Shown here: positions 1,391-61,250 of the stretch, one piece after another
How positions within the stretch are numbered: position 1 is the stretch's first letter
Layout: every line of letters starts with the position of its first letter
Assembly (NCBI GenBank): GCA_964016885.1
Contig: OZ024742.1
Coordinates: 95,666,001-95,730,000 of the forward strand
Reading direction: 5' to 3'
Source: Eledone cirrhosa
Taxonomy: Eukaryota
DNA: 64,000 bases
Position numbers and translations under genes: made by a program
Notes under the pieces: model-generated
Database searches by the model: none
The model's input: only the letters and a program-made list of their open reading frames with translations
What the model was told of the DNA's origin: nothing

Positions 1391-1581
1391 GGTATATATA
1401 TGTATATGTATGATTGTTTGGATGAAAGTACAAAAATCAATTAAAGGTGTTTATCATTTTTTTAATTTATAGGGAAATTCATATTTTCTAGCATATTTAT
1501 ACATCTACATATTAAAAATATGTAAATTTATATACACATTGTCGTAGTCTCAATTAATCACTATATATTTATATAGATATA

Positions 1582-1640
<59 letters not shown>

Positions 1641-2047
1641 ATACTTTGGGAGGGTCATGTTGCCAATAAGAAACACACGCACCAGTTGCTTTCACTTCAA
1701 TTTATTATATATTTATAAATTTACAAATCTACAAATTTATAAATTTCTGGTTGGTTGGTTGGTTCCACAACCAGATAGTTGTTTATATAGAGTCATAGTC
1801 CTTTCGTCACACACTCTGTGACCTCTTCAGTGACTGGGGATTCCTTTCTTTGTTTCTGTGCCTTTCCTTTCTTCTCTCCTACGCCATTTTGTTTCTGTGT
1901 GTGTGTTGTGTGCTCAGTTTACGCATGTGCCACATCCGGGTGTCTGTGTGTGTTTGTGTTCATTTATCTATTTGTTTATTTATTTATTTATTTACATGTT
2001 ATTGGTTGGTTGTTTGTTCTATGTGTGTGTGTGTTTTCATTTTGTCC

Positions 2048-2698
2048 TTAATTGTAAGTTGTGATGTTGCTGTCCCACTCATATTTTCTATTTAATTTTG
2101 GTTGTAATTCTTTTATGTTTATTGCCTCTGTAATTTGTCTAAACATTGCATCTTTTCTGTGTGTAGATTCTATTTTTATTTCTATGTTCTCTAATTTACC
2201 CTTGTGTTCTATCTTAGCATGTTGGTAGAGTACAGATGATTCTTTATTATCTTGAAGGTCTCGCCAGTGTTCATTTATCCGTTCCCCTATACTACGAGCT
2301 GTCTCACCTATGTACACTATATTTTTGTTTCTACATTGTCCTTCAGTACATCTTATGCTATACACTACATTTCTAGTTTTACAGTTAATATGGGGGCTTA
2401 TTTTACAGGTTATACATTTCTTATCTATACATGAGGGTCTTTGAAACGGGTATGTCTTGCTAATAAGTGTTTTTACGGAGGTACCTGGTCTTTCTACTAT
2501 CTTAATATTGAGTTTATATTTATTTAGGGCCCTTCTAAATTTGTAGGCTAGTTCGCCTCTAGGGGTTGTATCGATGAACATTACACTCTGGTATTTATTG
2601 CTATCATACCATGAGTTTATTCTATTGGCCTTGTTCCTAGTTCTTTCTATTCTATTCCAAAATTTGCTCCTATACAAGGGGCAGGTCCCATTTATGTC
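2048..2698 (-). CDS. PLE ORF C-terminus: Cys-rich linker plus GIY-YIG endonuclease (5'-truncated)
   Basis: Open frame CIDKKCITC...CKTRNVVYSIRC...YIGETARSIGERINEH...H...RQITEAINI...LNRKYEW. The predicted N-terminal 54 aa come from the inverted arm and are not genuine. Confidence 0.9.
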   Translation of the reverse strand, partial: DINGTCPLYRSKFWNRIERTRNKANRINSWYDSNKYQSVMFIDTTPRGELAYKFRRALNKYKLNIKIVERPGTSVKTLISKTYPFQRPSCIDKKCITCKISPHINCKTRNVVYSIRCTEGQCRNKNIVYIGETARSIGERINEHWRDLQDNKESSVLYQHAKIEHKGKLENIEIKIESTHRKDAMFRQITEAINIKELQPKLNRKYEWDSNITTYN

Positions 2699-2803
2699 CC
2701 CGGATGTGGCGCATGCGCAAACTGAGCACACAGCACACACACAGAAACAAAATGGCGTAGGACAGAAGAAAGGAAAGGCACAGAAACAAAGAAAGGAATC
2801 CCC

Positions 2804-2848
2804 AGTCACTGAAGAGGTCACAGAGTGTGTGACGAAAGGACTATGACT
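2804..2848 (+). ncRNA. Minimal type-I hammerhead ribozyme motif (mirror copy 1791-1835 on minus)
   Basis: AGTCA CTGAAGA G GTCACA gagtg TGTGAC GAAA ggac TA TGACT: stems I and II pair perfectly. Confidence 0.8.
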
Positions 2849-3034
2849 ATATATAAACAACTATCTGGTTGTGGAACCAGCCAACCAACCAGAAATTTAT
2901 AAATTTGTAGATTTGTAAATTTATAAATATATAATAAATTGAAGTGAAAGTAACTGGTGCGTGTGTTTCTTATTGGCAACATGACCCTCCCAAAGTATAA
3001 CAATATCGGTTTAAACACACGATTTCAGATAAAG

Positions 3035-3071
<37 letters not shown>

Positions 3072-10860: not shown

Positions 10861-12929
10861 TATGTATATATAGCATTTTTGTCAGTAAATTATACTAGAT
10901 AAGAGTAAAGGAGGATAATAAATGTTTAATACCTACTCTACTTTAGAAAATATGTTGTAATAGTAGTTGACATATTCATAACTCTAGCAAGTTGTTTTTC
11001 TGAGTTTCTTAATTTCCCATATTTGTTTATCCAGATAGGAAATATTGTTACCACAAAAATATCATCATTACTTGTACAATCCATTTTTACAACTCTAGAT
11101 AAACTGTTTAAGTAGCATTGATCTTTATAAATCAAATTATCCATCCATTTATGGGTAATGACCTTCGAATAGTGTCATAGGGTTATTGTCATGGTATACA
11201 ACAGGTCTTTGGCATTTAAACCTGGAGCAGTCCATACCTTGCCAGATCTGAACATAAACAATTCCTTCCACCGAGGAAAAATAAGTAAGTGAGATAGAGT
11301 GAAAACGAAACCCAGCACTAAACTGGTCCTTTATTTAATGACCACCTTGAAAGAATGAAAAACAAATATGACCCCAGCAGGATGTTAACACAGAGCACAG
11401 AGAGTTGGAACAAATACCACAAAACACTTTGACCAATGGTCTAATGACTGCCAATTAGCTTCTCTACATTACTCTATAGTATCTTATACACTGGGACCCA
11501 AGATACAATTAATGTTCTACCACTTCATTTATTTTCTTTTTCATGACCAATGTTTAAATAAAAAAAATCATTATCTTATTTTATTATCCTTTAAATGCAC
11601 TAATACTTTTCACATAATCCCAGTTCAAAAGTAACTCAAGATTAAAATAACTACTTTATTTATTATAATAATGTTTATTGTAGTAACTGCTATTTCATAA
11701 TAACTTATATACAACACAAGAGTTTTAAGGCTATTTTTCCTCTGCTATAGCTGGGATTAGTCTTGCAGGCTTCATGAACGATTTTATATTCATCGAGGGG
11801 GCTCATTTCTGAGGCAATGTTTTACAACCAGATGCCTTTGTTGGTATTTTAGATTCTTGTGGTAAACTCTATTGTATGATAAGTTATATACAAAACAAGC
11901 ATCTTAAGGCTATATTCTCGAATCCTTTTAGCCAACACAAATGCCATGAAAGGATAGAGTGTGCCTATTCTAAATAGGATACACACAATAGCTTAGGGTA
12001 TTTCAAAATGTTAGTCTTATATCAATCTTAGACTTTATATCAGTTCTTTATCACACATACTCTCCCCTCACAAATTCTGATTTTCATTTCCATTAGTCTT
12101 CCCATTGCTGATACTATTTGCTGGTTGCAACTCATGGTAGAAGGAGCAATGTGGAATAAAATATTTCACCCAAAACCACAGCACGGTGCTCAATCAAGTT
12201 ATTGAGTTCATAACTATATGACATTGAATCAAACACCCTAACTCTATGGGCCCATGTCTTCCTTTATACAGTTGAGTATTGTAAAATATTCTTCTTTTCT
12301 AAGTTATATTTGTTTTAAGTCATTAATAATTCAAAATTAGGTGACACAATCTTATAATATTGTTCACAATACATTTCTTTACAATCTTTATCCAATTTCA
12401 AATTACTTTTCATAAATGATTTTTCTACCCCTGTCTTGTTATTGCCTATTCTTTTAAACTTTTAAACTACTAACTTTAATCAACAAAGCTTATTTCTGGT
12501 TTTGAATTTATATCTAAAATTAATAAAATCTCAAATATTTCAGATTGGTACAACTATCTTGTTTTTGTGAGAGTGAGAATCTATTTCATATCTTGCTATT
12601 TCATTGCAATAGTAATTAAAATTACACTATAGAATCATATTTAATATATTTAGTTCATCACACTAAAGACAATAAAAATCATAAAATTTCATAAAATTTT
12701 GTCATTTTTTTTTATTATCGTAATTACTATGAAATAAATAGATTAAATACAATTTTGTAGTTGAATATTAATTATTAACGCTCTGAAATAATGAAGTATG
12801 AAATAGATTCTCCCATTTACAAAAGTAAATTGGTTGGACCAATCAGAATGACAATAACTGAAAGAAGAAATCTTATTCTTTGTTTCCTATTGGTAGTCAT
12901 GTGTACTGTAATATGTGTCAGAGGAGTAT

Positions 12930-13200: not shown

Positions 13201-13350
13201 TCATCATCATGTGACAAATGTCAACATGGCATGGATTCTGATGAATCTAGAATATATCTAGCTCATCCTGATTATATATATATATATATATATCAATGAT
13301 ATTAATAAATGGAAACTATATTTATAAAACCATATTTATTTTATTATATA

Positions 13351-13986
13351 CAAGCAGTGGTACCTGGCTAAGGTATTTTGGAAGGCGGGCCGCCAACAGA
13401 CCTAATCGTGGACAAACTACATGCCTCGACAATATGTAAAGAAAATAAACCGAATACTCTGATGGCTGGACAATCTTTAAGATTTGCCTCGATGAAGCAG
13501 GAAAAATGCAGGTTTTCACCTAATGCGGACCCTAGGGGATCAAGAAAATTAATTTTTTTATGTGCATAATATGCCTTGAAATTTCGGGAAAATCGGCTCA
13601 AAAACGTAACGCCTCAAAAGAGCCCTAAAATACTGAAAAATTGAAGTTTTTCACCTAATGCGGGCCCTAGGCCATAAAATGTTGGATTTTCTTTAATCAC
13701 GGTATGAAGAAGAGACTGACTAATACATAGTTACACTTTCAAGGAAATCGCTCTGACGTAACGCCTCAAAAAACCCATAAAAAGCCGGAAAAAATGAAGT
13801 TTTTCACCTAATGCGGGCCCTAGGGGATCAAAAAGTTGAATTTTGTATGTGCATAACACTCTCTGAAACATAAGTAATACACATGTAAAGTTTAAAAAAA
13901 GTCGGTTGGGTACTTCTCGAGTTTTAGGGATTCAAACTCACAGATACACACACACAGACAGACATCCTCAGTTTTATATATATAGA
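13351..13986 (-). mobile_element. Non-autonomous Helitron
   Basis: On minus: 5' TCTATATATATAAAA...TGTCTGTCTG, 3' hairpin TACCT-tagcc-AGGTA then CTTG (CTAG variant); inserted between A and T with no TSD; three internal ~140 bp repeats containing TTTTCACCTAATGCGG.CCCTAGG. Confidence 0.8.
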
Positions 13987-14153
13987 TATTTCAAGGCTAC
14001 CAGAAAAACTCTGGTACGCTCTCATCAGATAAAATACAAAATTTGTTTTATAAATAGTGAAATACCCGATAAACCAGACCTTAACGGTTCAGGTTCCATG
14101 AACCGTTAAGGTCTGGTTTATCGGGTATGTCATTATTTATAAAACAAATTTTG

Positions 14154-14217
14154 TATTTTATCTGATGAGTGCGTACCAAAGTTTTTTTGGTACCCTTGAA
14201 ATATATATAATAAAATA
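14154..14217 (+). ncRNA. Type-I hammerhead ribozyme motif
   Basis: TATTTTAT CTGATGA gtgc GTACCAAA gttt TTTGGTAC cctt GAAA tatata TA ATAAAATA; 8-bp stem I, palindromic stem III. Confidence 0.75.
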
Positions 14218-14359
14218 AATATGGTTTTATAAATATAGTTTCCATTTTTTAATATCATTGATATTAAAGGAAACTATTAGAGTGCTTCGAATCTGTTATA
14301 ATAAATAAATTTGTTGAATTACCAGCAAATTAAATATTTCTTTACTTATATACATAAAC

Positions 14360-19065: not shown

Positions 19066-19854
19066 AATTATTGAAAAAAATTAACTGAAACCAAAAGGTA
19101 TTATATTTCATGAAAGATTTACTTATGGAGGTGTTAATCTTCTTAAATTTAATATGTTGAAAGTATCTTGTCGCTTTATGATTCACTAGAGGGAGTTAAA
19201 GATTTCATATTGATTGATTTTGAAAACATTTCATCCAATAAATCGAATATCGTCCAATATCTAAAAAGAATTATTTTAATCAAAACTCTTCCCCAAAATT
19301 GTCTTTCCAAATCTGAAATTCTTTTTTCAAATTTTTCCCATGACATTCGAAATATTCGTAGGTGTTGAGTAAAAAAAATTTGATCAGTGTTGGTAGCTCA
19401 CTTAACATAAATATCATGTGATTCTCGTGCGATTGCTTCACTGTTTCAGCATTGCAGTCTTACCCACAATGCATTAAGTGTTTTGGGCTACCTTAAACAC
19501 TTCTAAAAGGCAACTCCAGCATTTGCTATTGAAGTGTGTAATTCAGATAGTGAGCATTATTTTCTCTTTGTTTTGTTTTGTTTTTCTGACCAATTTTCGT
19601 TGTTCTTGTCCATTTATTTGACTATTCTTTTATTCATTTGCTCTGTTACTAGTTTCAGTTATTTGACTTCTGCTATGTTTGAGCATCACCTTAAAAGTAT
19701 TTAGTCAGTTACATCGACCCCTGTACTTAATGTTTTATGTCTAATAAGTACTTTATCAGTCTCTCTTTGTTAAACAATTAAGTTACAAGACATAAACACA
19801 GAAATGGACACGAACACACACACACACACACGCGCGTATATATATATATATATA

Positions 19855-20136
19855 TGTAAGTATGTTTTGAAACATTGAGCAGGTTTGAAATTAGAAAATA
19901 GATTAGCTTTCACAGTATTTTTTACTAAAGAAATTTTAGCCTGATAATGGGGCTTAGAACTTTCAGATAAATGGAAAAAGATGAGTATTGACGTACATGG
20001 GAGTCTGCATAACCAAAGATGTGTTTCGACTCCCATGTACGTCAATACTCATCTTTTTCCATTTATCTGAGGGTTCTAAACCCCATTATCAGGCTAAAGT
20101 TTCTTTAGACAAAAATACGGTGAAAGCTAATCCATT

Positions 20137-20141
<5 letters not shown>
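19855..20141. repeat. Fold-back element in (TA)n
   Basis: Arms 19892-20005 and 20028-20141; ~37-nt unpaired tail on the left. Confidence 0.85.
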
Positions 20142-20535: not shown

Positions 20536-20583
<48 letters not shown>

Positions 20584-21261
20584 ATTTAATGTATAATAAA
20601 CAATACAATATAATTACCTCATTACCAGAGGTTTCCCGAATAAGACGAATCCAAGAAACTTCCTCATTCGTTCGTCAGACAAGGCAATTTAAAACATAGT
20701 CAAATATTTGAAAAATCTCCTCAAGAAAGGCAAAAGTTTAACGGGCAAAAAAAATATATAAATAAAAGTAATACAAGAGATATATAAAAATAAAATAAGG
20801 AAATATAGTAAGGGTATGTGTATAAATGTGTGTATATGCACATACAAATATACATATGTGTGTATGTACAAATGCATGTGTATGAAAGCACGCGTATAAA
20901 TACACACACACGCACAACCACATAGATGCATATGATATATACAAGGAAGGGAGTGTATCAGTCAAAGCAGTGTCAGGCTGAAGGTCGATAAATATATAAA
21001 AAAAATAAAATATGAAAATGAAAAAATGAAAAAATATATGAGAATAAAAAAATTAAATCAAAGAGAAAGTAAGAGGGAGGGGTTATCAATTATAAAGTAA
21101 CACTAGAAAAAATAGAAAACATACAGAGGTTCGTACACACACACATATAAATATATATACGTACAGACAAAAGCACATACATGCGTACATACATACAAAA
21201 GCGCGCATACATACACACGAAGCACACACATATTTATATACATAATAATAAACATAATAAT

Positions 21262-21910
21262 AGGAAAAGAAAAATAATCTGGTTCACACCCCCTACTCTT
21301 TAGCAGTTAAAACTAATGTAGGCAAAAAATTCCTAGAGCTCTTTGATAAACATTTCCCTAGAACACATAGATACTATAAGATCTTCAATAGAAACTGTAT
21401 CAAAATCAGCTACTCCTGCGGTCCCCCTATTAAATCTTATATCCTCAATAAGAAAATCACCCAGAGAACATCAAAATTGCTCCTGTAGAGTCAAAAGTGA
21501 ATGCCCATTACAAGGTAAATGCAATACCAAAGCCTTTGTATATGCGGCTAAAGTGACAACCTACCAGCCACCAGCGAACGATATGTGGGTATGACACAAG
21601 ACAAATTCAAAACGCGTTATTACTCACATGTCGCATCTTTTCGACATCCTGAAAAAAGATTTACAACAGCTCTGGCTAGCAGAATATGGGATTTGAAAAA
21701 CCAAGGTATCCAATATTAATTAGATTTGTCAATTTTGAACCAATCTAAAGAATATGCAAGAGGAACAAGAAGATGCGTACTCTGCATAAGTGAAAAAATA
21801 TTCGATTTTACAGAACCTTAAATCACCAAAAACCTACCTAAATGCAAAAACAGAAAACTTCAACAGTTGCCCACACGTGAAATCACACTTGCTTTCCAGC
21901 TCATATAAAC
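21262..21910 (+). pseudogene. PLE linker and GIY-YIG remnant (second PLE lineage)
   Basis: KIIWFTP/YSLAVKTNVGKKFLELFDKHFP, CSCRVKSECPLQGKCNTKAFVYAAKV, YVGMTQDKFKTRYYSH...IWDLK; several frameshifts. Confidence 0.85.
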
Positions 21911-22366
21911 TTAACTCACTCTCAGATACTTATCCTCCACAAACTCTTGTTCTTTACTTTGCTTAACTTACCTTCTTTACAGACTTCTCTTTCTGATTTA
22001 CTTTTATTTTTATTTTTAACTTTATTTTTAATTCACATCCACCCCCTTCTTTTTGATTCACTTACTTTATATTTTACTTCCCCCTTTTCTTTCTCTACCT
22101 GATATCACTGTCAATTGCGTTTTCAACTCCAGATATATTCTGTTGTCCCTCAGCCGCTTTTATGTATGTTTACTTGCGTATAATTTGTACTCATTTATTC
22201 ATACGGCTGTTTTTTATATTGTATGTATGCGTGTAAGTGTGCATATGTGTGTATACGTGTTTGTATATGTATACGAATGCATTCGTATGTGCGCGTGTAT
22301 GTGTATATGTGTGTGTGTATGTGTGTTTTTATATCTGTTTTTTACATATATATATGTGTGTGTGTG

Positions 22367-22403
<37 letters not shown>

Positions 22404-23176
22404 TATGTGTGTGTGTATATATATATGTATATATATGGTCGCCTGCGTATGATTAGATGTACATGTATGTATATATATGCTTCGTGTGTATGTATGCGCG
22501 CTTTTGTATGTACGCATGTATGTGCTTTTGTCTGTACATATTTATATATATATATGTGTTTGTACGAACCTCTGTATGTTTTCTATTTTTTCTAGTGTTA
22601 CCTTTTAATTGATAACACCTTCCTCTTACTTTCTCTTTGATTTAATGTTTTTATTTTCATATATATTTTCATTTTTTCATTTTCATATTTTATTTTTTTA
22701 TATATGTACCGACCTTCAGCCTGACACTGCTTTGACTGATACACTCCCTTCCCTGTATATATCACATGCATGTATGTAGTTGCGCGTGTGTGCGTGTTTA
22801 TACGCGTGCTTTTCATACTTGTATGTGTATATATTTCAATCCTTAGTCCCTGAGTCTGTATGTACGCTAACTCTATTATCTTACAATTTCTTTTTCAACC
22901 TATATTATATACGTATTTGTGATCACACATACACTGATATGCTTGCCCTCATGTATGTACTTACGCACACATTTTCTCACTATACACATGCATTTGTACA
23001 TACACACATATGTACATTTGTAGGTGCATATACACACATTTATACACATACCCTTACTATATTTCCTTATTTTATTTTTATATATCTGTTGTATTACTTT
23101 TATTTATATTTTTTTTTTTTTGCCCGTTAAACTTTTGCCTTCCTTGAGGAGATTTTTCAAATATTTCACTGTTTTA

Positions 23177-23254
23177 AATTGCCCTGTCTGATGAACGAAT
23201 GAGGACGTTTCTTGTATTCATCTTATTCGGGAAACCGCTGGTAATGAGGTAATT
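23177..23254 (+). ncRNA. Type-I hammerhead ribozyme motif (mirror copy 20612-20689 on minus)
   Basis: AATTGCC(C/T)TGT CTGATGA a CGAATGAGGA...TCTTATTCG g GAAA cc gct gg TA ATGAGGTAATT; ~11-bp stem I including GU pairs. Confidence 0.8.
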
Positions 23255-23556
23255 ATATTGTATTGTTTATTATACATTCAATTTAGCTCTGTAACTTACA
23301 TAGAGCGCTCTTCACTCCTATGACTTTTTCAATTTTCAACGGAAACTTCAATACTTATATATATATATATATATTCTTACTTGATATATATATATATATT
23401 AACGAAAATCGGTGGTATAAATACAGCTTCCTTCGGCTAGAGTCTACCTCACTCAACAAATCTAGTGAATTGCAATTATGTAGCCGCAATCACCTGTTCA
23501 GACTGCACATATTTAGTTTTACTGTAGAGCGATGACTGTGGTTATAATTAGAGATG

Positions 23557-23596
<40 letters not shown>

Positions 23597-23611
23597 ATTT
23601 AATATAATATA

Positions 23612-24086
23612 ATTTAGAGTTTTCACTCAGGAGTCAAATACAATTATTTAGCTCTAAGAAATATTTCTGAGCAGTACAATACAAGTTAATATAAAAAATA
23701 TATGATCAACACTAATGTGTTTTTATTGCAAATGGATGCCTATTGAGAATCACAGAAAATTGATTATTTCACTAATAATTATCTCATAAATAGTTATTCC
23801 ACAATTAATTAATTATTTCAGTAGTATACCATCCTTTGTGAAACAGCTTTATTTTTTGAAGTTCGGACTGATCTGCTGAAAAGGTTTGAATTTTGGAATT
23901 TAAACTTGTCTAGGCACCAGGGCAGTTGCCGATATACGTCTGTGAGTATAGATTTATTATTTTTTAGATCAATACAGGCAGACTATATGTATTTGAATTA
24001 AGGTATTTCTATCTGGCTAAATTATTGTCAATTTGCAATAAAAACACATTAGTGTTGATCATATATTTTTTTATATTAACTTGTAT
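23612..24086. repeat. Fold-back element in (TA)n
   Basis: 23679-23733 is the near-perfect reverse complement of 24031-24086; unpaired tail on the left. Confidence 0.75.
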
Positions 24087-24093
24087 ATATATC

Positions 24094-24125
<32 letters not shown>

Positions 24126-24132
24126 TATATAT

Positions 24133-24483
24133 GGGTACTACACGAGAATGCTGAGGATGGCTCTGAACATTAATCAGTATACACTGAGGATGAAAAACTC
24201 AGAGGTGTATGGGAGCCTCCCAAACGTCAGCTCAAAAGTGACACAGAGGAGACTGAGGTTAGCTGGACATGCTCATCAACATCCAGAGTTGACATTGCAC
24301 TCAGTGCTCCTGTGGGATCCCCTACATGGACACACTGGAAGAGGAAGACCAAGGTTAACGTATGTTGATGCCCTAAGGACAGACACTGGTCTGTTGGAGA
24401 CGCATGACATGGCAGCGATAATGAGGGACAGAAACCGCTGGAGAGAACTCGTCCATGGATCTCGGGAATTTTACCCGCCCTAG
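24133..24483 (+). pseudogene. RTE-like LINE ORF 3' end
   Basis: GYYTRMLRMALNI...RRLRLAGHAHQHPE...LLWDPLHGHTGRGRPRLTYVDAL...MRDRNRWRELV*. Confidence 0.8.
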
Positions 24484-24503: not shown

Positions 24504-25073
24504 ATATGAAAAAGTTTGTCCTTCATCAGTGATCTTCCAACCATCATAGGCATTTCATCGCTTTAAAGACCATATACCTCCGGTTGGTGCGAGCAACGGC
24601 TAAAGTCGTTGGGACACGTAAATAAAGGGGACGCGAGGGTAAACAAACAAAATGGTTTAAGCAACAGAAAGTGATGAAGAAAGAGACAAGTCCCAGATTT
24701 CTATGAATTTAAATTCGGTGAAATCGTGTACGAGAGAATAAAGACCATCAAACCTGGTTGAAATGTGAGCAAGGAAGGAATTTCGCACAGGCCTAACAGG
24801 GGGAAGAAGGGGTCTGGTCTGCGAATTCGGTAAACATAAGTTCTGTGAAATCGTAGACGAGAGAGAGTGCTTAAACCATTTTGTTTGTTTACCCTCGCGT
24901 CCCCTTTATTTACGTGTCCCAACGACTTTTTTTAGCCGTTGCTCGCACCAACCGGAGGTATATGGTCTTTAAAGCGATGAAATGCCTATGATGGTTGGAA
25001 GATCACTGATGAAGGACAAACTTTTTCATATGTAACCCATTTGCAACACCGCAGCTCCATTATTATCATATTT

Positions 25074-25075
<2 letters not shown>
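24504..25075 (+). repeat. Fold-back element in (TA)n
   Basis: Arms 24504-24663 and 24868-25031 are near-identical; tail 25032-25075. Confidence 0.9.
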
Positions 25076-25130
<55 letters not shown>

Positions 25131-38020: not shown

Positions 38021-38545
38021 TATATATAGTGTATTTTTCAATAAACTGTATGCTTAATTAAAAGCATTTTGAAGACCTTATGCTATTGTTTTAGAGTAGT
38101 GACAGACTCACTTACTTTAAATTTTCAGCAAACAGGGGAGATAAAGGTGACAGAGCTATGTTTCGTACTGATTGGTACTTATCAAAGCCAAGCACTCCAC
38201 CTGTTTGCTGAAAATCATGAATGTTTGATTCTTATAGAAATTCTAGTAATAATCAGGAACTGATTATACAGAGCGGTTGCCGGTCAAGCAGAAATTGAAA
38301 ATTAGAATTGGCACTCTGAAATAGTACTTGCCTTAGATAAGTACCAATCAGTACGAAACATAGCTCTGTCAGCTTTATCTCCCCTGTTTGCTGAAAAGTT
38401 AAAGTAAGTGAGTCTGTCACTACTCTAAAACAATAGCAAAAGGTCTTCAAAATGCTTTTAATTAAGCATACGGTGTATTGCAAAATACACTATATATACA
38501 TTCATATATATATATAGATATTTCAGAGCGGCAATTCTAATTATT
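38021..38545. repeat. Double fold-back element (A'-x-B-A-B')
   Basis: Inverted pairs 38021-38196/38323-38498 and 38300-38323/38519-38542. Confidence 0.85.
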
Positions 38546-45150: not shown

Positions 45151-46747
45151 ATATATATGTTGTTTTACTTGTATCAATCATTAGAATGTGTCCATATTGG
45201 CCTTGAAGGTATGTAACTGATTATATGGTACCTATTTTTGATTTACCAAACCACTAAGTTAAAGAAAACATAAACACATAAGCATGTAGATAAACACACA
45301 CACATGCAATAGAATTTTGTAGTTACTATCCACCAAATTTCACTCACAAAATATTTGTAAACTCAAAGCTAATGTAAAAGAGATTTATTCAAAAGTCCTG
45401 TCTGTATATCATTATCATCATCATTATTGTTGTTTAACATCTATCTTCCAGGCTAGCATGGGTTAAATGGGTTTGTCCCATTTGCATCAAGTTGGGTCAG
45501 GTGACTGTGTCTCATTTGTATAGGGGTTTAAATGGTTAAATTGTTCGAGCATTTTTATGGTTGAACCTATAATGCAGCAGAGTACATCATCATCATCATC
45601 ATCACCATCATCACCTCACCATCACCACCATCATCATCATCATCATCATTATTATTATTATTTTATATCCAATTTCATGTTGGAATGTGTTGGATGAGTT
45701 GTTGTGGTCTGAGACCAGATCGGTTTTGGAAAAAATGATTGGCTATATTTTCCATATTTGGCATGGTTTCTCCTGCTGGATGTTCATGCTAATACCAACA
45801 ACTTTACAGTGTACTGGGTACATATTATGGTACAATTACTAAAGAAGTTATCAAACTTAAGAGTTTACTCCAATAGTGTATTTTCGATTTTTAACAGCTT
45901 TACAGATGTATTGAATGTATTTTATCATGGCACTAATACTAGTGAGTTTTTTTTGTTTTATCAGATACAGAATGTTCACACTACTCTACGTAGTCTCACA
46001 CTTTACATTCCATTTTGCACTAGAAGTGGTCTAGTCCACTGCTGGCTAAAAGGACTTCGCTACCCCAAGTCATTTTCAATCTTTCAACAGATTTACTTTG
46101 AGCCTCATAGTGCCTCTACTGATGAACACGTCTTTTGTCTTATGAAATATTACCAGTCAGTTCAATCTTGTGTCAAGCCTTTCAAAAGGTTTAGTTTCCT
46201 GAGGTCATTCTTTACAACTTCATACCATGTCTTCCTTGCTCTCCTTCTTCCTTTAAGCACTCTTCTATATTCTTAGATCAACAAAAGTCATGAAGATTAT
46301 GTGTGCAATTTGGTACATGGAAACTGCTGAGAAACTTCACTTACAAACAAACTTCATGATTTTAGTAGACCCAAGGATAGGTTTGGTGCAAATTATCGAA
46401 AATGCTGAAACGGCAAGATGAAGTTGTGGTTATAAAACAAACTTCCTAACAAGAAAGCCATGCATGCACCCTTGATTAAATCATATATATATGATTATAT
46501 GTACTACAGCCCCCCCCCCTATATATTAATAGCATCTGCAGTGCTGAGACTAAGAAAACCACTAATCATGTGAGTACTCGATAGATGGTGAGATGTAGAG
46601 TGGTTATAGAGATGTGTAAAATCCTGACTTTGGCACCAAGCGGTTTTGGCTTGTGTATTCACAAATCCTTTTCAATGGTGTAATCTTTGAAAAGGCTTGC
46701 TGAACACACAAGCCAAAACTGCTTGGTGCCACAGTTGGGATTTTACA

Positions 46748-46784
<37 letters not shown>

Positions 46785-49436: not shown

Positions 49437-51674
49437 AGTGATAACAAAATATTGTTATAGGTAATCCAGTTAGAGGTTGTGAATACTTCTTATTATGGAT
49501 AGTTTTAGAGTGCGGCGTTGTTTGACTCAACAAGAGGTTTATGTAGATGACGTGTAAATGATTTCACTTGTATTCATATGTAAGTTTATCTTGGAGTAAT
49601 AAAATTGAAAAAGTGAAGAATAACATGGTCAACAGTACAAAAAGGGGGATTTATTTAGTCTAACAATTGTTTCCCTGATTAAGTTGTCTAAAAATGGCTG
49701 AACACTAGAAGCAATACCACTCAATTTCAAATACGATGTTAGCTCAATCAGATCATCAGAAACTGTTACAAAAAATATATATAAAGGGTAAATTTACAAA
49801 TTCAAATTACATCATCAATAATAATATTAATAATAAAGATAGAGAGAGAGAAAAAAAGAAAGAAAGGGAGATAGATAAAGGAAAGAAAGAAAGAAAAAGA
49901 AGAAAGAGAAAGAAGAAAAAGGAGAAATGAATACAGAGAAAAATATAGAGAGAAGAAAATATATGGATAAATGATGATAGAAAGAGGAGAGACATGTATA
50001 AGGAGAAATAACGTAGGAGAGAAAGAGCAATAGAGGGAAAATAATGATATCAACAATAAATGAATAAACGTTAATACATGAATAAATGTAAATAAATAAA
50101 TTACATCTAATATGATACCAAATGGTACAAAATGTGAAAAATTAAAAACAAAAATATGAAAATAAATAAGTAAAAAAGTAAAAATGTGTGAAGAAAATTT
50201 AAACATATTAAGATTATTGAAAGTGGTTTTTGAGAGTGGCTAAAATATATAGAGATACGAAGGTATAAATATGATAATGTTAAATATATTTATGTGTATA
50301 TTGGTTATTTCAATAAATAAATAAATTAATTAGTTGTAAGTTATAAAATAAAAAGCCAGAGATGAAATAAATTTAGGGAGATAAATATAGAGATAAAGAG
50401 TGAAAGATAGGGATATATAAACTAAGAATGTAAATATAAGAGGTTTTAATGTTGTTCATTGATAGATGATGACAATTATAATAATAATGATGATGATGAT
50501 AATGTGATAAACTCTCCAGCTGTGGAGCCAATGTAATGCCATGCTAAGCTACCGGAATTTATAATACATAGGTATACTATATTTGTCTCTAGGCGATGAC
50601 AGATTCATTTAGATGCTTTAGATTTGTCAGGTAGATGACAGATTCATTTAGATGCTTTTCTATGTGCCGGTTCTTCGATATGGTTTTGTAGGTTGCTATG
50701 TACGGGTTGAGAATTGGGTTTGTTTATGTATTGTGGTGATGTGTTCAGACATGCGTTTGGTTGTGATTATGTTATATGCTTATGTTTTGTATTTGGTGTT
50801 ATGGTACTTATTTGCGGGCTACTTGTATTATAAATTCTTTTATAGTTAATTTTATGTATGTGCGAGTCTATGTTGTTGGCAGTGGAGTATGATAGTTTGA
50901 TAGTTTTTCTATTAAATATTTTATGATATTTATGAATTTTAGGGAAGTGTTTGTCAACCAGTTTGAAGAAAGTGTAAGGTAGTTTTATTTGTTTTACACT
51001 GGATTGAATCATAAGTAGTTTCTATCTCTGCATCTTCTATAGTTATTAGTGGTCTTCATATTAGTATTCTGTTCAATTAATTTACGTGCTTGTTGCCAAT
51101 TTCTATGTTTAGTCCTAGATTTGTTGCTTCTATAGGTGTGGATAGTGTTATTAATATTAAGTGTGTGGTTATTTTTTGTATCTGGTATGTATTTGAGTCT
51201 CTCTTTATGGCCTGCCTTAAGTAAAGCTATGTTGTAGTAATTAGCGTGTTCATTAAACATTTCTAGGTTAGAAGATAGGCACGAGATTCTAAGGGATATA
51301 CTATGTGCTATGGAGTTAATTATGGATCGAGGGTGCTTAGAGTTATAATCAATGTAAGCTAAATTTTCATTAATTTTATGGAACCTTAATCCTGTGTTAA
51401 GGTTGAGCGATACATCTAAGAAGTTAGCTTTTTTAGAGTTGAGTTCAAAAGTGATCTTAAGGCCTAAATTATTAAAGAATTTTCTAATCTTTTCCTTAAT
51501 CCTTCTAAGTTTTATTTATTTAGGTTTTTAGCTAAGAGTAGTGTATCGTGTCTATAAATTCCTCCTTGTATGTTATCAAATTCCCTATGTAAGATATGTG
51601 CTATATAAATTCCGACAATGTCTGTAACTTGGGATGAATCATTTGATCCCATAGTTATATCGAAGTTATTCTGT
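49437..51674 (-). mobile_element. PLE remnant: RT fragment, thumb/linker and long 3' UTR with hammerhead
   Basis: NFDITMGSNDSSQVTDIVGIY, GGIYRHDT, ANFLDVSLN, FKLVDKHFPKIHKYHKIFNRKTIKLSYST; same lineage as 21262-21910. Confidence 0.85.
49657..49764 (-). ncRNA. Type-I hammerhead ribozyme motif with enlarged stem II
   Basis: AGTTT CTGATGA TCTGATTGAG [~60 nt] CTTAATCAGG GAAA caattg TT AGACT, followed by AATAAA. Confidence 0.75.
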
Positions 51675-53197: not shown

Positions 53198-56190
53198 CAG
53201 CTGCATTTATCTTGCTTTATGTTCATACGAGTTATCACCAAGTCACAACCAGTGACCTCAAGAGACAACAAGGTCCGCCATGTTCAAGAAAGAACATACA
53301 TACTCACACATGCATCTTTAGTGCTTAGACTTGTGATGTACTTATATTGACAGAAGCTTCCTTAGTATATGGGCAGTTCCCATTAGTACTATCTTTTGTA
53401 TTTCTCCTATACGCGGGTTTCCTGGGATTTGCGATAAGTAATCATTAGACCCCTTAGGTATCATTGCTAGAGCGCCTACAACCACTGGTATTGTTTTAGT
53501 TCTCAATTTCCACATTTTTCCAATTTCTATCTCCAGGTCCTTATACTTGCTCAATTTTTCAAATGTTTTTATAGATACATTCTTGTCTATTGGAACGGAC
53601 ATATCAATTAGCAGGCATAGCCTCTTTTTAAAGTCCTTCAATATTATATCAGGTCTATTTGCATCTATTTTTCGGTCTGTTTGGATGCTAAAGTTCCACA
53701 AGATTGAGATGTGATCTTTTTCAAGTATGGGAGGTGGTTGATGCTCCCACCAATTCTTTTGATGGGGCAGGTCAAAATGCTTACAATGTATGTATTGTGC
53801 AGCTCTGTCATGCCTGTTTATGTATTCGGTTGGAGCTATAGGACTGCACATTGAAATTATATGGTCAATGGTCTCTGGTTGTTTTTTACATACACGGCAT
53901 AATGGGCTACATCCATTTTTATTATGTTGGCTTGGTAATTTTTTGTTGGCAGACACTGATCTTGTGCTGATATAATCAGTCCTTCAGTCTCCGATTTCAG
54001 TCCAGAGGATGCCAACCACTGATGGGTTAAAGTTTTGTCAACATCAGGATTGTTAGCTCGTTCTAGGTATTTTCCATACAGAGGCTTTTCTTGCCATTTC
54101 TTAGCCAGTTTCTGTAGCAGTTCTTTCTTTGCAGTTACTTTTACCTGCTTTGCTTTTTCTGTGTTTTCCATTTCAGCAATAAATCGGACTTCTGAAATGT
54201 GTAGTCCATTACTGTATCTTTGTGCATCTGTTGTAATGGAGTATGATCTTTTGATGCTTTCATGTTTCAAAACGAGTTTGATCATCCAATCATGTGATTC
54301 CCTTAGATATGTAGATAATCCAATTGTTGCAGTTTTCAACGCAATGTCTAACTGGATTAACCCACGTCCTCCTTCTTTCCTAGGGAGATATATTCTATCT
54401 GTATCTGCCTTAGGGTGATGCATTCTGTGCATGGTTAAGAATTTTCGAATTTTTATATCGAGCCTACGGATCTCTGTGCTTGACCAGTTGATGACATTGT
54501 AACTGTAGGTTACTACTGGTATGGCAAGCGTGTTTATGGCATCGATCCTAATCCTTGCATTCAATTCCGTTCTTAAGATTGCTCTTACTCTGTGGTAACA
54601 TTCCTTCCTTATCCTTTCCCTCATTGTCGAGTGCTTGATTCCGTCTCCTTCACAAACACCTAGATATTTGTAAGTTTCCTCTTGATCAAGTTCTCTTATC
54701 ACATTCCCTCGATCAAGATTAATGTCTGAACTCTTCAGCAGCTTTCCTCTGGTGAACATTGCTTTGGCGCATTTATCTAGTCCAAGCTCCATTTTAATGT
54801 CATCACTGAACTGCTCAACAGTTGATAATAGCCCTTGCAATTGTTCATCATTTTTTGCAAATAGTTTCAGGTCATCCATGTAGAACAAGTGATTAATGGT
54901 TTTGTCATAGGCTTTATATCCATGTTTTGTTTCATTGAGCATTTTACTTAATGGTATGAGTGCGATGCAGAATAAAAGCGGTGATAAAGAGTCACCCTGA
55001 AAAATTCCACAATTAATATTAACTTCTCCAGCTTCCAGTGATTTTGTTTCACTATTCAAAAGGAGTGTCGTTTTCCATGTCTTCATACTGAATGACAAAA
55101 ACCTCCTGACAACGGGGGATATTTTGAAAATCTCTAAACATTTTTCAATCCAACTGTGTGGCAAACTATCGAATGCTTTTTTATAATCTATCCAAGCAAT
55201 TGATAGATTTTTGTGTCTATTATGACAATCTTCCAGTATCATTTTGTTAACCAAAAGCTGATCCTTACAGCCATATGAGCCTCGTTTACACCCTTTCTGC
55301 TCAATGGGAAATAGGTCATTTGTTACCAGGTGGTCATATGTATATTCAGTTAGGACTGATGTTAAAAAGTTATACATTGTGGTCAAGCAAGTTATCGGTC
55401 TGTAATTTTTGTAAAGTTTGTCTCATCATTCTTCGGAAGCAGGAATGTAATGCCGTTAACTAGCCATGATGGTATCTTTTCTGGCTCCTTAACTATTTCA
55501 TTGTAAAGTTGGGCTAACAGCTCATGAGACTCTGTGAAGGCATTTATCCAAAAATTTTGTATTTTGTCTTTTCCTGGGGATTTCCATTTGCTGGTTTTTC
55601 TTAGAGCCAAACGCAACTGTTCAACTGTTATATTTTCCCATATTTGTTCCTCAAGGTGAGCTGTATCTTTCATTTGTCTGTCTATCCATGGGGCATGTAT
55701 ATTATGAACTTTTTCTTCGGCCCAGATCTTTTCCCAGAATTCTTGCACTTCCTCCTTGGGTGGTATTGATTTAGCAGTTATTGTTGACTTACCAATTTTT
55801 CTGTAGAAGTTTCTTTGGTTGGTTTTGAACATATTATTGTCCTTATAGAATCTAGATCGTTTTTCAAAGCGCCTTATACGAGCAGCTTTGGCCGACACTT
55901 TTTGTTTGATTATTTCTATCAGCATGCCTATGTCACTTGTTGGTTTTATACTGTACTTTCTTTTCAATTTTCTAAGTTTATTTTGTTTAACATGTTCACC
56001 TACTTTATAGTTTTTTAAAATTTCTATGTCAGATCGGTGAAGGTTTATTTGGCGATTGATGTTCTCTTGCCAAGTAGATTTCTTGTAAGAATTCCTTTGA
56101 TTTTTCATCTTCACTCCACATAAGTGAGTGGTGACTTTAGCCGATGCATAATAGAGATGATTTAAATCAGTAATGTTTAGTTTGTTTGTG
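53198..56190 (-). mobile_element. R4/Dong-clade non-LTR retrotransposon (RT plus RLE), 5'-truncated, 2 frameshifts
   Basis: ORFs 55392-56190, 53857-55386 (EQKG, WIDYKKAFDS, GIFQGDSLSP, YMDDLKL) and 53342-53956 (CRVC..HIISMC, RHD, RPD..IDMSVP..K..KY); (TAA)n tail at 53179-53197. Confidence 0.95.
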
Positions 56191-56224
56191 ATGATAATGT
56201 TTATTATTATTGTTGTTGTTATTC

Positions 56225-57551
56225 CTTGAATCTCAGTCATTGATGTTGGTTAACTGGAAAGTCCGTTGGATTGAATATCAAGCCACTACCTGCAGCCTCA
56301 GATATTCAGGACGTATGGGAGGGTTCTTGCTGTTCCAAGCAATCATGCCTTTTGAAGCGTTCCAAAAAGCGTGAAGGGGCCGATTTTCTTTAACCATCCC
56401 TGGAAACTTTTGGAGATAGTCCCCAGTGCGCCTATGACAATCGGGATCACTTTGACTTCATGGCAGTTCCAAATCCTTTTCACCTCCCACTTTAGGTCCT
56501 GGTATCGGTTAATGTTCTCCCTCTCCTTCTCTTGCACTCTCGTGTCGAACGGGCAGGCCACATCCACAATCAGACACGATCTTTTTTCTTTGTCCACAAC
56601 CACCAGGTCAGGTCTATTGTGTTCCAGTTTTTTGTCCGTCTGTATCCTAAAATCCCACAGCACCTTCACCTGATTGTTCTCCATCACCGCCTCTGGCCTA
56701 TGCTCATACCATTTCTCAGAATGTGGTAAATTGTTTACTTTGCACAGGTGCCAGTGGATCACCCTGCCCATCACATCGTGTCTCCAGCCCTTATAGTGGG
56801 TCTGGGCTAGGTGTTTACACTCGGACACAATGTGAGCCACAGTCTCCTCTCTCTCTCCACAGATCCTGCACAGTGGGCTAGCCTCCTCCTTGTAAATATG
56901 GTGCTTCAACCACTTCGTTTTGAGGGCCTGCTCCTGCGCAGCCATTAGCATTCCTTCTGTAGCCTTTTTGAGGTCTCCTCTTCTCAACCAGTTCCATGTC
57001 TGTGGATCTCTAAATTCAGTTTTCTCAAAGAAGGTACTATGAAGGGATTTTCCCTTAAGGCTGCTCTTCCTCCTTGATGTTATTTCCTCCTTGGACATCC
57101 CCTGGCCTACTGTCCCCTCCTTCAGTACAGTTCTGAGCATTGGCTCCTTACTATAGGTCACGTATTTGTATAGGTTGTTTTTCTCCATCTGAACACAGTC
57201 CTCTATGCTGATAAGACCTCTTCCACCCTCAGATCTCCTTAGGTAGAGTCTATCGACATCACTCCTCTTGTGGAACATGTTGTAGATAGTCAATAGCTTC
57301 CTAGTCTTCCTATCCATTTCTTTTTGTTCAGCAACATTCCATCTCAGAATTCCCGCACTGTACCTAATAATAGACACAGCTCGGGAATTTACTGCGCTTA
57401 TGGCATTTCTGCTGTTCAGATGTGACTTCAATACGCTCCTTACTCTCCGAATGTATTCAGTTCTTAACAATTCCTTCATTTTTTTGTTCTTTATGCCATC
57501 AGCCTCCAGAACGCCCAAATACTTGTATCCTTCCTCAGAGTCAATTTCCAT
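56225..57551 (-). mobile_element. Second R4/Dong family, 3' 1.3 kb (thumb plus RLE)
   Basis: YKYLG...CRICGEREETVAHIVSEC...RHD...WDFRIQTD..RPDLVV..VDVACP; (TAA)n-like tracts on both sides. Confidence 0.93.
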
Positions 57552-57609
57552 TTTATTATTATTATTATTATTATTGTTATTATTATTGTTATTATTATTA
57601 TTGTTTTTA

Positions 57610-57676
<67 letters not shown>

Positions 57677-58264
57677 TATGTGTGTGTGTGTGTGTGTGTG
57701 TTTCATTTGGGAGAACTGTTTCATTTGGGAGAAATCATCAGGAAGCTTACTTACTGTGGCTACCCCCGTTTGAACCTAGGATAAACTTATATATACATCT
57801 TCATCATCATCATCATCATCATGATTTTCCACATCACCATTTAATGTCCATTTTTCTATTTTCCATATTAGCATGGGTTAGACGAGTTGTCCCATTGTGA
57901 GACAATCAGAGTATAGCTAATGATATGCAATCATCACTACAGCATCTGGCACTGGTAAGGCATCATCAGATATTAACACTACCATAACAGCTTTATTAAC
58001 ATTAATTCAAACATAGAAAATGTGTTACATTATATCACAATTGTAACACTGCATATATATATGACTGACATGGAGTGCATTTACCTGCTTTCAATTGTTT
58101 ATCATTGAGATATTGCAATGTGACTCTCATGGATAAGCAAGTCACTAATTAACCATATATATATAGGGAAAGATTCAGGTCCCTGATGGCTGAGCTCCGG
58201 TCATTTTGATATCGAGTACTCTGGTGCGTTATGGTCCACCTTGTTCCTTACCACACTTTCTTTG

Positions 58265-58665: not shown

Positions 58666-58712
58666 TAAATAGTGAGTCTTGTTACTCAGGAGTAACGAGA
58701 CTCACTATTTAT
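58666..58712. repeat. Short hairpin with ~22-bp arms abutting (TA)n
   Basis: TAAATAGTGAGTCTTGTTACTC...GAGTAACGAGACTCACTATTTA. Confidence 0.8.
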
Positions 58713-58794: not shown

Positions 58795-58803
<9 letters not shown>

Positions 58804-59435
58804 GACGTAAAATAAGGAAATTTTAAAAATTAAAAATCAACTTACTTACTAAAATTTTCACTCCAACTAATTAGTTTCTGTAAGGGGATAAATATAGTTA
58901 CATAATATAACTATAGAGAATTCCTTACGTCATCAGGGAGTTTATTCTCAGCTAAGTTCCCAGGCGATGCGCGGACACTAGGAACCCATATAAAAATAAT
59001 AATAATTCAGTGGATGGAACAAAGCTAGCGAGGACTAAATTCCGGAGCACTGAAATAATTCACTGCCTCTGGTCAGTGGCAAATTCTAAAGAATCAATCA
59101 CGTGACACTGAGGTTAATCAGTTAGGAGCGGGGTGGTATTATGAATCAGCAGTAAATTTTGGCAAGTTTTGCTCAACATATGTGTACATATGTTCACCTA
59201 TGCTAGCAAATATATATGTTATGTCTTAGTACCTTTGGGGTTCTATGCAGGGAGATGCAGAACAATTAGTTGGAGTGAAAATTTTAGTAAGTTGATTTTT
59301 AATTTTTTAAATTTCCTTATTTTACGTCTTTCATATAAATATTCTGCATCCCCCTGCATAGAACCACAAAGGTACTAAGACATAACATATATATTTGCTA
59401 GCATAGGTGAACATCTGTACACATATGTTGGCAAA
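58795..59435. mobile_element. Double fold-back non-coding hammerhead element (A'-x-B-A-B')
   Basis: Inverted pairs 58795-58880/59258-59337 and 59174-59262/59342-59430. Confidence 0.88.
58860..58941 (-). ncRNA. Type-I hammerhead ribozyme motif
   Basis: ACTCC CTGATGA c GTAAGG...TATAGTTA loop TAACTATA...CCTTAC a GAAA ctaattag TT GGAGT; palindromic stem III. Confidence 0.8.
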
Positions 59436-59852: not shown

Positions 59853-61250
59853 ATATTGTTATACTTGGGGAGGACCATATTTGTGTAATATTGCCAGAAT
59901 TAATAACAGAACACACTCACTGTTTCGTTGGTTTTCGCTTTTCGCTTCTGTGTCATTTATATCGGTAACCTAATTTACTCGGTCCTCAATGTTGCCATTG
60001 ACTGACCGACGGTCAAAAATAATACAGATACAATATAGACACAAACACATATATATAGTTTATCATAAATCTTTCGTTGCACATCTGCAGCATCGTCAGT
60101 GTTGCTATCGTTTCCTCCCGTTGTATTGTATGTCTACGCCATTTTTATTCAGTCTGTCTATATATTTATTTATTTATTTGCTTGTTTGTTTATTTTATTT
60201 TGTCTTCTTTGCGCATGCGTTTGCGTGTGTGTATAGTGTTTTGTTTGATGTGTGATGTGTGTTCATGATTGGGTGACTAGTGTGTGTTTATGTGCTTGTG
60301 TATGTATTTATTTATTTATTTATTCATTTATTTTATTTTATTTACTTATTTATACTTCTCTTAGGTCAGTGTTGTTTGTTTCGGTGTTGTTGTTATTCCA
60401 TTCATTCTTTCTGTTTAGTCTCGGTCTTCTAAGTTCTATCTCGCTGGCCTCTCTGATTTGCCTATCTGCTGGGTCATTTCTATGTTTAGATATTATTCTA
60501 ATTTCTATGTTGTCTATGTTACCGTCATGTTGTTGTCTGGCATGTTCGTATAGTACTGAGCCGTTTTTTCGTCCTTTTAGTTTCCCCAGTGTTGGTCTAT
60601 CCTTTCACCTATGCTACGAGCTGTCTCACCTATGTATGTTGTTGTCATGTTTCTGCAAGTACCCTCTGTACATCTTATGCAACGTTTCTAGTTTTACAGT
60701 TTATCCGGGGGTTTACCTTACATATGATACATTTCCTATTGGTACAGTGGGTTTTCTTAAAAGGGTAGGTTTTGCTGATCATGAACACACATCACACATC
60801 AAACAAAACACTATACACACACGCAAACGCATGCGCAAAGAAGACAAAATAAAATAAACAAACAAGCAAATAAATAAATAAATATATAGACAGACTGAAT
60901 AAAAATGGCGTAGACATACAATACAACGGGAGGAAACGATAGCACCACTGACGATATTGCAGATGTGCAACGAAAGATTTATGATGAACTATATATATGT
61001 GTTTGTGTCTATATTGTATCTGTATTATTTTTGACCGTTGGTCAGTCAATGGCAACATTGAGGACCGAGTAAATTAGGTTACCGATATAAAAGACACAGA
61101 AGCGAAAAGCGAAAACCAACGAAACAGTGAGTGTGTTCTGTTATTAATTCTGGCAATATTACACAAATATGACCCTCCCCAAGTATAACAATATTTGCTT
61201 CGACACACAATTTCATATAAAAAACCTCGCAAAATTAATTCATCGCCGTT
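59853..61250 (-). mobile_element. Truncated PLE with inverted pLTRs, relative of 1633-3036
   Basis: Arms 59853-60269 and 60778-61194; broken GIY-YIG at 60385-60777 (YIGETARSIGERIDQHW...RQIREASEI...LNRKNEW); shared terminus CCCTCCC.AAGTATAACAATAT. Confidence 0.9.
60945..60985 (+). ncRNA. Minimal hammerhead motif (mirror copy ~60062-60102 on minus)
   Basis: CA CTGACGA t(a/g)TTGCA gatg TGCAAc GAAA gatt TA TG; short stem I. Confidence 0.6.

Follow-up and report, generated by a model that had tools for sequence, protein, structure and literature searches.

Insertions of EN+ Penelope-like elements (PLEs) can be complex, with an inverted 5′-truncated copy and an optional 30–40 bp tail (PMC8557442, Fig. 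2 legend), and Pen2a_Av is a further example of an inverted copy with a tail (PMC3846280). The origin of the inverted repeats and the tail has been named as an open question (PMC8557442). PAc, the Poseidon element of Anolis, cuts and extends both strands in vitro and is predicted to form a dimer; its reverse transcription begins at two internal positions of the RNA, which coincide with tail ends seen in the genome (PMC11167929). That work explains the tail but not the inversion; it offers no model for the inverted arms and does not address one RNA serving both strands. In twin priming of L1, both nicks prime on one RNA, and internal duplications, which arise when the first cDNA passes the second primer, are found in 17% of inversions with a median length of 22 bp (PMC2837659; 10.1101/2024.08.27.596794). 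Twin priming and dual priming, in which two RNAs serve one strand each, were indistinguishable in PMC2837659. In the literature available to us we found neither a twin-priming model of PLE inversions nor template counts from edited copies; PLE reviews of 2005–2006 may hold such a model.

The window, that is, the whole stretch of DNA analysed here, is 64,000 nt long, and the fold-back at its positions 1633–3036 is a head-to-head pair of Penelope-like element 3′ ends (Table 1). Its inverted repeats span 1570–1940 and 2699–3069, and the 3′ ends of both arms point outward, into the target. Contigs from an independent study show the same short end likewise merging into (AT)n; none of the contig pieces listed bridges the inner junction, a result that is neutral either way. 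An inverted arm with a tail is already known as a published PLE hallmark. New here are internal ends that are fixed at the scale of a family, the rule that a short-ended arm is joined to a long-ended one, A-to-G marks shared by the two arms, and the geometry of the target-site duplications (TSDs).

Table 1. Coordinates of the fold-back at 1633–3036, its parts, and the other fold-backs of this layout (positions in the window)
Feature	Position	Strand	Description
(TA)n target array, left flank	1562–1636	.	last 4 bases, 1633–1636, common with element ATAT
ORF arm, short-ended	1633–2700	-	5′-truncated PLE 3′ end: ORF end, 3′ UTR/pLTR, next ORF start to +26
Terminus of ORF arm	1633		short end (S), ORF +26
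PLE ORF, C-terminal 218 codons	2051–2704	-	CX4CX2C linker and GIY-YIG/CCHH endonuclease
Hammerhead-type core, left arm	1802–1830	-	CTGANGA, 6-bp stem II, GAAA; motif scan
Head-to-head junction of arms	2699–2700	.	overlap 0–2 nt
Non-ORF inverted arm	2699–3036	+	pLTR, ORF start codon 2981, ATAT 3003–3006, tail
Hammerhead-type core, right arm	2809–2837	+	motif scan
Tail	3007–3036	+	ORF +27 to +56; half of the main family's 60-nt tail
(AT)16 target array, right flank	3037–3069	.	
Related PLE subfamily fold-back	59853–61250	.	short end 59853 on ORF arm, 55-nt tail on other arm, hammerhead cores
Second PLE family fold-back	20583–23356	.	YVGMT motif, hammerhead cores, tail on ORF arm, family tail 78 nt
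Hammerhead-bearing fold-back	13290–14345	.	left arm interrupted by unrelated insert, ~13351–13971; right end approximate
Fold-back	23595–24086	.	short end 24086, 87-nt tail at left; PLE by layout only
Fold-back	24504–25082	.	short end 24504, 48-nt tail; two other copies continue past the long end
Fold-back	38021–38545	.	short end 38021; PLE by layout only
Fold-back	58795–59385	.	short end 58795; nested with second palindrome 59168–59435; tail end uncertain
Further fold-back, same layout, absent from first-pass annotation	19852–20141	.	short end 20141 (2-nt TA), 36-nt tail

Judged from its sequence, the element at 1633 is an EN+ PLE. Its intact form, found at locus L121, is a tandem 4423-bp unit with a 1318-aa ORF, and the ORF remnant in the fold-back is 92.7% identical to this ORF. 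This single ORF has a C-terminal GIY-YIG endonuclease and, read by eye, the motifs MDVVSLYPS, QEEGAAIG and YVDD, which we take to be RT-type. The whole ORF matched no Pfam family and no PDB entry, so the RT assignment is by motif; the remnant matched PF01541 with E=3e-4, just under the curated cut-off. As described for EN+ PLEs, the family has tandem pLTRs (the 4423-bp unit) and inverted 5′-truncated copies with a tail, and its pLTR carries in both arms a hammerhead core (CTGANGA–stem II–GAAA), a predicted ribozyme; the cores gave no Rfam match at gathering score. Neptune/Nematis-type PLEs are defined by a CX2-5CxxC linker upstream of a C-terminal GIY-YIG domain with CCHH (PMC8557442). The L121 ORF has CIDKKCITC upstream of VVY..C..C..YIG, followed by two His, and by those definitions, compared by description, the element appears Neptune/Nematis-like. 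Elements of the Hydra clade, in contrast, are short (<3 kb) and lack CCHH, and a Naiad or Chlamys element, with an N-terminal endonuclease and no hammerhead, is ruled out by the C-terminal endonuclease and the hammerhead core. We also considered a DNA transposon with terminal inverted repeats (TIRs) and rejected it, since neither fixed identical termini nor a fixed interior was found. The tandem array at L121 (1–9501; C1:63065500–63075000) contains intact units that are 99.98% identical, and its ORF includes a long low-complexity stretch rich in N/T/H that resembles the N-rich inserts of Adineta Penelope families.

The first-pass annotation had proposed that one of two primers starts at the RNA end and the other internally, by TA microhomology, and had suggested mapping end-points and microhomologies over many copies. 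For the main family, exact sequence patterns in the 3.0-Gb genome counted 15,557 ends of the short type and 14,778 of the long type, besides 438 copies reading through past the long end. The short end lies at ORF +26 and the long end at ORF +86, 60 nt apart and each on ATAT; within ORF +1 to +225, ATAT 4-mers occur solely at +23 to +26 and +83 to +86. Longer TA runs at −133 to −122 and −58 to −51 are not used as ends. In 66 pairs, a set partly selected by its ends, 59 of 132 arm ends were at +26 and 54 at +86, and 88 arms chosen irrespective of their ends comprised 33 of the short class, 46 of the long class and 9 others. Since the sequence past the long end in the 438 read-through copies is the continuing ORF start, the long end is internal too and is ruled out as the RNA end. 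Two copies of the 24504 family likewise continue past its ATATAT long end; among 30 loci of the 20583 family, there was no read-through copy. A hammerhead cut was rejected as the 3′ terminus, the core lying ~140–170 nt upstream of the ATG and distant from both ends. The copy at 1633 is an exception, in that its long-ended arm stops at +56, without TA homology, rather than at the family mode of +86; its half-length tail possibly reflects a later 26-nt deletion between two GAA, to judge from the sequence.

The ends are thus fixed on ATAT, neither random with respect to TA nor identical like the termini of TIRs. We compared the short-end homology to (TA)n in 16 family groups, drawn from the window together with 400 kb of flanking sequence; for families with two copies, the smaller value was counted. 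Fold-backs without a 30–110 nt tail ending in (TA)n and those with low-complexity arms were excluded, as were the fold-backs at 24086 and 38021, which the filter missed; some of the 16 groups are not proven PLEs. Mean homology was 2.8 nt, compared with 1.7 nt under the stricter null (p=2e-4), and it reached at least 3 nt in 9 of the 16 groups, against 3.4 expected (p=0.0016). The proposed role of TA microhomology is therefore upheld in so far as homology is enriched, but it is only 0–2 nt in the other 7 groups, the positions are fixed, and stronger TA runs are skipped. The 20583 family has a fixed short end with 2 nt of homology (1–2 nt of TA in the window copy). Fixed ends despite variable homology indicate that position is fixed and that pairing is a helper. 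An older subfamily (L186, L207, L208 and L209) has GTAT instead of ATAT at +83 to +86 yet ends at +86, which again points to a fixed position. RNA structure at the start sites gave no signal, the fold of the 241-nt region lying within shuffles (z=−1.19).

The two ends are used together. On C1 (1–35.08 Mb), where the first 100 short ends and the first 98 long ends listed were examined, head-to-head neighbours within 4 kb were short+long in 45 of 48 cases, with 2 long+long and 1 short+short; half would be expected if the ends were independent (at 8 kb, 46 of 51; p=1e-9). In this sample 53 short and 49 long ends were unpaired, partly because the search patterns are exact. Short+long pairs also made up 13 of 13 in the end-unbiased set and 7 of 8 independent loci of the second (20583) family. 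For arm lengths we dropped from the 66 pairs 3 that were unanchored and 3 longer than 4.5 kb, and kept the 45 short+long pairs with gaps <60 nt. The short-ended arm was the longer in 22, the long-ended arm in 20, and 3 were equal, in agreement with the original description of two head-to-head arms whose 3′ ends both face the target and either of which can be the longer. The two arms were more similar in length than expected by chance (permutation p=1e-4; 14 of 45 pairs differed by no more than 20 nt), with a weak rank correlation (p=0.067), and the arms overlap by tens to >1000 nt. Six of 62 long arms start inside the tail (+29 to +58), and four or five of these visibly adjoin an inverted element arm; the long arm of L244/L336 consists of +21 to +86 only. 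Among the 62 long arms there was no peak at +26 indicative of a stall there. Since either arm can be the longer and some are tail-only, simple fold-back of one target-primed cDNA cannot produce these structures.

Inner junctions differ at every locus and mostly measure −3 to +3 nt or lie on natural palindromes. Clean TSDs were readable in 5 of 72 pairs (L002, 15 bp; L007, 13 bp; L078, 14 bp; L245, 12 bp; L247, 15 bp) and candidate TSDs in 22 of 72, mostly within TA arrays. At the five loci, in the same order, the TSD overlaps the element by 4, 0, 4, 3 and 4 nt at the short end and by 4, 4, 4, 1 and 4 nt at the long end. This geometry suggests a staggered cut with both 3′ overhangs used. The same two sites also terminate solo arms whose 5′ flanks are unrelated (for example, L008, L010, L016, L017, L023, L026 and L027).

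The two arms of a pair are much more alike than family members in general. In 50 pairs, 920 comparisons at sites polymorphic in the family showed 36 differences between the arms, where random family members would give 354, and the arms had 66 rare variants in common; arm-to-arm divergence is ~1.3%. One locus was seen to have dense A-to-G changes in both arms, and further edited loci were found by pattern searches. Seven hyper-mutated pairs have 238 shared A-to-G sites and 17 discordant ones, and the Jaccard index of A-to-G patterns is 0.67–1.0 within a locus, against a mean of 0.32 and a maximum of 0.45 between loci. Two further edited pairs agree at 7 of 8 and 6 of 7 sites, so that all 9 fold-backs with overlapping hyper-mutated arms are concordant, at up to 89 of 89 sites over ~900 nt; the three cleanest have 0 of 148 sites discordant. 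Although a hit in one arm sufficed for detection, in no pair was the editing of a shared region confined to one arm. Six edited arms have no informative partner: L330, L331, L334 and L335 have none in 6–8 kb, and the partners of L336 and L337 span only an unedited zone. Among the matches listed, strongly edited exact motifs occur at their own loci only, and no identical source copy was listed. The shared, locus-specific A-to-G patterns mean that both arms come from one molecule and not from two templates. We conclude that each pair has a single-molecule origin; two RT passes and one DNA copy give the same marks. Of the two options first put forward, two templates or re-use of one, the former is thus dismissed, and one molecule, as indicated by both edit pattern and haplotype, is retained. 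Extra discordance (17 discordant positions among 1178 A columns, against 15 of 4596 in the background) was rejected as evidence for two RT passes, since most of it came from two loci that are noisy or old and the three cleanest pairs had none.

The hyper-mutation is clustered and consists throughout of A-to-G changes on the sense strand. Among 261 arm records (locus duplicates included, with a T-to-C pattern search among the inputs), 22 were A-to-G-rich and none T-to-C-rich, and in the T-to-C control only 2 of 100 matches listed had a second such change. Together, the patterns shared by the arms and their restriction to the sense strand rule out two independent RNAs, an antisense template or a hairpin transcript, unless one arm was later converted completely. 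A 5′ G is the least edited context, weakly (0.22, against 0.24–0.39), and a 3′ G is preferred (0.42); invertebrate hyper-editing is reported to favour a 3′ A (PMC5625713). We read the marks as ADAR-type editing of the template RNA, which their neighbour context fits in part.

Editing is not uniform along the element. Thirteen edited arms (L256, L188 and L337, for example) have an A-to-G density of 0.31–0.44 at −260 to −91 relative to the ATG, 0.18 at −90 to −61, and 0.00–0.03 at −60 to +85. The unedited zone is possibly a protein footprint or a required cis element, and part of it may reflect selection by the search anchor. One arm, at L337 (618–1783), has 137 A-to-G changes over ~1100 nt.

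We consider it likely, with a probability of roughly 70%, that each fold-back is a single PLE insertion with arms ending at +26 and +86, made by twin priming on one RNA that is read twice. The GIY-YIG nuclease would nick the two strands 12–15 nt apart, leaving 3′ overhangs, and both 3′ ends of the staggered (TA)n cut would each prime RT on one sense RNA. Two RT active sites, possibly in a dimer, would hold one read-through RNA at sites 60 nt apart, and the two primers would take different sites (+26 and +86), with TA pairing of 2–5 nt assisting and the protein setting the position. The +86-primed RT would re-read the RNA, either displacing the +26-primed cDNA or following behind it. The cDNA 3′ ends would then be joined via 0–3 nt of microhomology, short filler or a natural palindrome, and filled in; extension of only one primer would leave a solo arm ending at +26 or +86. 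The short+long rule is directly explained by one RNA with two occupied sites. In the five readable loci both 3′ ends adjoin the 12–15 bp TSD, from which we infer priming, and the single-molecule origin of the arms agrees with one template. The mechanism was at first said to be unlike classic L1 twin priming; this is so in that both ends are internal and the overlap is large and routine, but the reaction would work like twin priming. Somewhat less firmly, we favour a broader reading, in which PLEs integrate by programmed symmetric twin priming, inverted pLTRs and tail being the normal product of the core reaction and the edits its barcodes and footprint (approximately −60 to +86). In the programmed form, a dimeric RT-endonuclease would make a 12–15 nt staggered cut, place two overhangs on two fixed RNA sites and copy the RNA twice. 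Several observations count against twin priming: the excess of near-equal arms is also predicted by fold-back with a short loop, long arms do not pile up at +26, and PAc start sites are reported to be non-homologous to the cut DNA and alike on both strands (PMC11167929). The low homology in 7 of the 16 groups and in the 20583 family, the partial fit of the ADAR context, the small number of clean TSDs and the +56 end of the copy at 1633 also weigh on this side, as does the fact that the marks of the three cleanest edited pairs would equally follow from a DNA copy.

The strongest competitor, which we nonetheless think unlikely, is that one cDNA is made first and folds back into a DNA hairpin reaching beyond +86; the endonuclease would trim one arm at +26 and the other at +86, and what remains would be inserted at a staggered cut in (TA)n. 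Such a scheme would account for the identical A-to-G patterns of the arms, for the fact that either can be the longer, for tail-only arms and for the excess of arms of nearly equal length; ATAT is common to the enzyme's target and both element ends, and EN-mediated resolution has been suggested as the origin of the tail (PMC8557442). However, this scheme does not directly give solo arms with unrelated 5′ flanks at the same two ends, it needs a reason for different cut sites on the two arms, and the tail ends of PAc coincide with measured RT starts on nicked target DNA (PMC11167929). Dual priming, with the likeness of the arms due to one source locus, gene conversion or hairpin mismatch repair, appears very improbable. 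A shared haplotype would by itself also fit two RNAs transcribed from a single locus, gene conversion between inverted arms can occur, and the arms of the 1633 fold-back differ at 7 aligned sites, some of them family-polymorphic positions. Set against this are the concordance of all 9 overlapping hyper-mutated pairs, its locus specificity and the lack of an identical source copy among those listed; dual priming also leaves the short+long pairing without a reason.

Antisense-RNA self-priming, proposed for head-to-head palindromes (PMC3846280), retrotransposition of a whole hairpin transcript, and simple snap-back of one target-primed cDNA are less probable still; in favour of this group, some junctions sit on natural palindromes. 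An antisense or hairpin transcript would give T-to-C in at least one arm, contrary to the 0 of 261 found, and simple snap-back cannot place the tail on the shorter arm, as seen in 22 of 45 pairs, or produce tail-only arms; all three are refuted for the main family unless the A-to-G marks arise off RNA. We give almost no weight to TIRs or assembly artefacts. Inverted repeats in TA targets do look like TIR elements, but the termini are fixed and unequal, the centres vary, the arms are PLE ORF and pLTR and diverge by ~1.3%, and the TSDs are 12–15 bp; the independent contigs show the same short end.

Three described systems come closest to these fold-backs. Like published PLE complex insertions, the fold-backs have a head-to-head arm, a tail at one end that lies in the ORF start, a TSD, (TA)n targets and a pLTR hammerhead; their tails are 36–87 nt (60 nt in the main family), as opposed to 30–40 bp. 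In descriptions of those insertions we found no short+long count or evidence on template number. As in PAc, two internal RT starts in the ORF start would define the tail, and both strands would be cut and extended; however, PAc starts lack homology to the cut DNA, whereas both ends here lie on target-matching ATAT, and the clades differ, Penelope/Poseidon having no linker zinc finger. With L1 twin priming the fold-backs have in common that both nicks would prime on one RNA, that microhomology would join the cDNAs and that the arms stand head-to-head within a TSD. L1 primes once at the poly(A) end and once at an internal position that varies, whereas here both sites are fixed and internal, 60 nt apart; overlap here is routine and hundreds of nt long, and about half of the listed ends are paired. 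The classic L1 form, with a primer at the RNA 3′ end and little overlap, does not describe these insertions. The A-to-G marks here do tell twin from dual priming, and this edit-barcode approach could separate the two in other retroelements.

Taken together, the pairing of short with long ends, the geometry of the TSDs and the A-to-G marks common to both arms reduce the possibilities to a single template molecule, and they make sharp predictions for an assay that already exists. Telomerase has the RTs of PLEs as its sister group, a kinship that would give the re-reading of one RNA by paired active sites wider interest. One family alone has produced near-perfect hairpins by the thousand, which probably supply dsRNA for editing and make the genome less stable.

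The fold-backs of the window bear out the pattern as first described. The last base common to the arms falls exactly at 1633, 13290, 24086, 24504, 38021, 58795 and 59853 (7 of 7), and the internal ATAT/TATA at these short ends consists, in the same order, of alternating T/A runs of 4, 4, 3, 4, 8, 5 and 4 nt. The short side was said to merge into (TA)n, and alternating TA of 50, 21, 9, 24, 9, 74 and 15 nt follows, although 24086 and 38021 are marginal at 9 nt; at 38021 a (TCA)n repeat comes next. The claim that the other arm runs ~30–90 nt further agrees with the distance to the next (TA)4 at 1633 (30 nt), 24086 (87 nt), 24504 (48 nt), 58795 (49 nt) and 59853 (55 nt), but tail length is not readable at 13290, where no (TA)4 is reached, or at 38021, where the first (TA)4 is already within the tail. 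As stated, the non-ORF arm bears the tail at 1633 and at 59853, where the ORF remnant is on the minus strand, and the ORF arm bears it at 20583, where a GIY-YIG-like YVGMT is on the plus strand. Scans found a hammerhead core but no ORF in the 13290 fold-back, and neither in those at 24086, 24504, 38021 and 58795, so the PLE identity of these four is by layout only.

Several other structures were seen. Within the window, the insert at 13351–13971 has internal direct repeats and sits at a TA run in the left arm of the 13290 fold-back, and there are more palindromes at 12539–12848, 46608–46754, 58666–58711 and 59168–59435, some with the short end and tail layout. Elsewhere, five short direct copies of the element end lie at L025 (1425–2173), with TA runs between them that carry the same interruption; four end at the short site and the last at the long site, which may reflect repeated priming or local amplification. 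At L330 (475–3315), a 2.7-kb long-ended arm is joined to a 234-nt inverted piece lacking the short end, resembling a classic L1 inversion or an interrupted arm, and on the small contig C994 the same fold-back locus occurs three times (L306–L308), ~10 kb apart. The window also holds two non-LTR retrotransposon fragments in opposite orientation at 53342–57734 (RVT_1 at 53860–55422), which form the 52739/57085 inverted repeat, and further retroelement-like ORF fragments without a Pfam match at 51009–51515 and 23968–24483.
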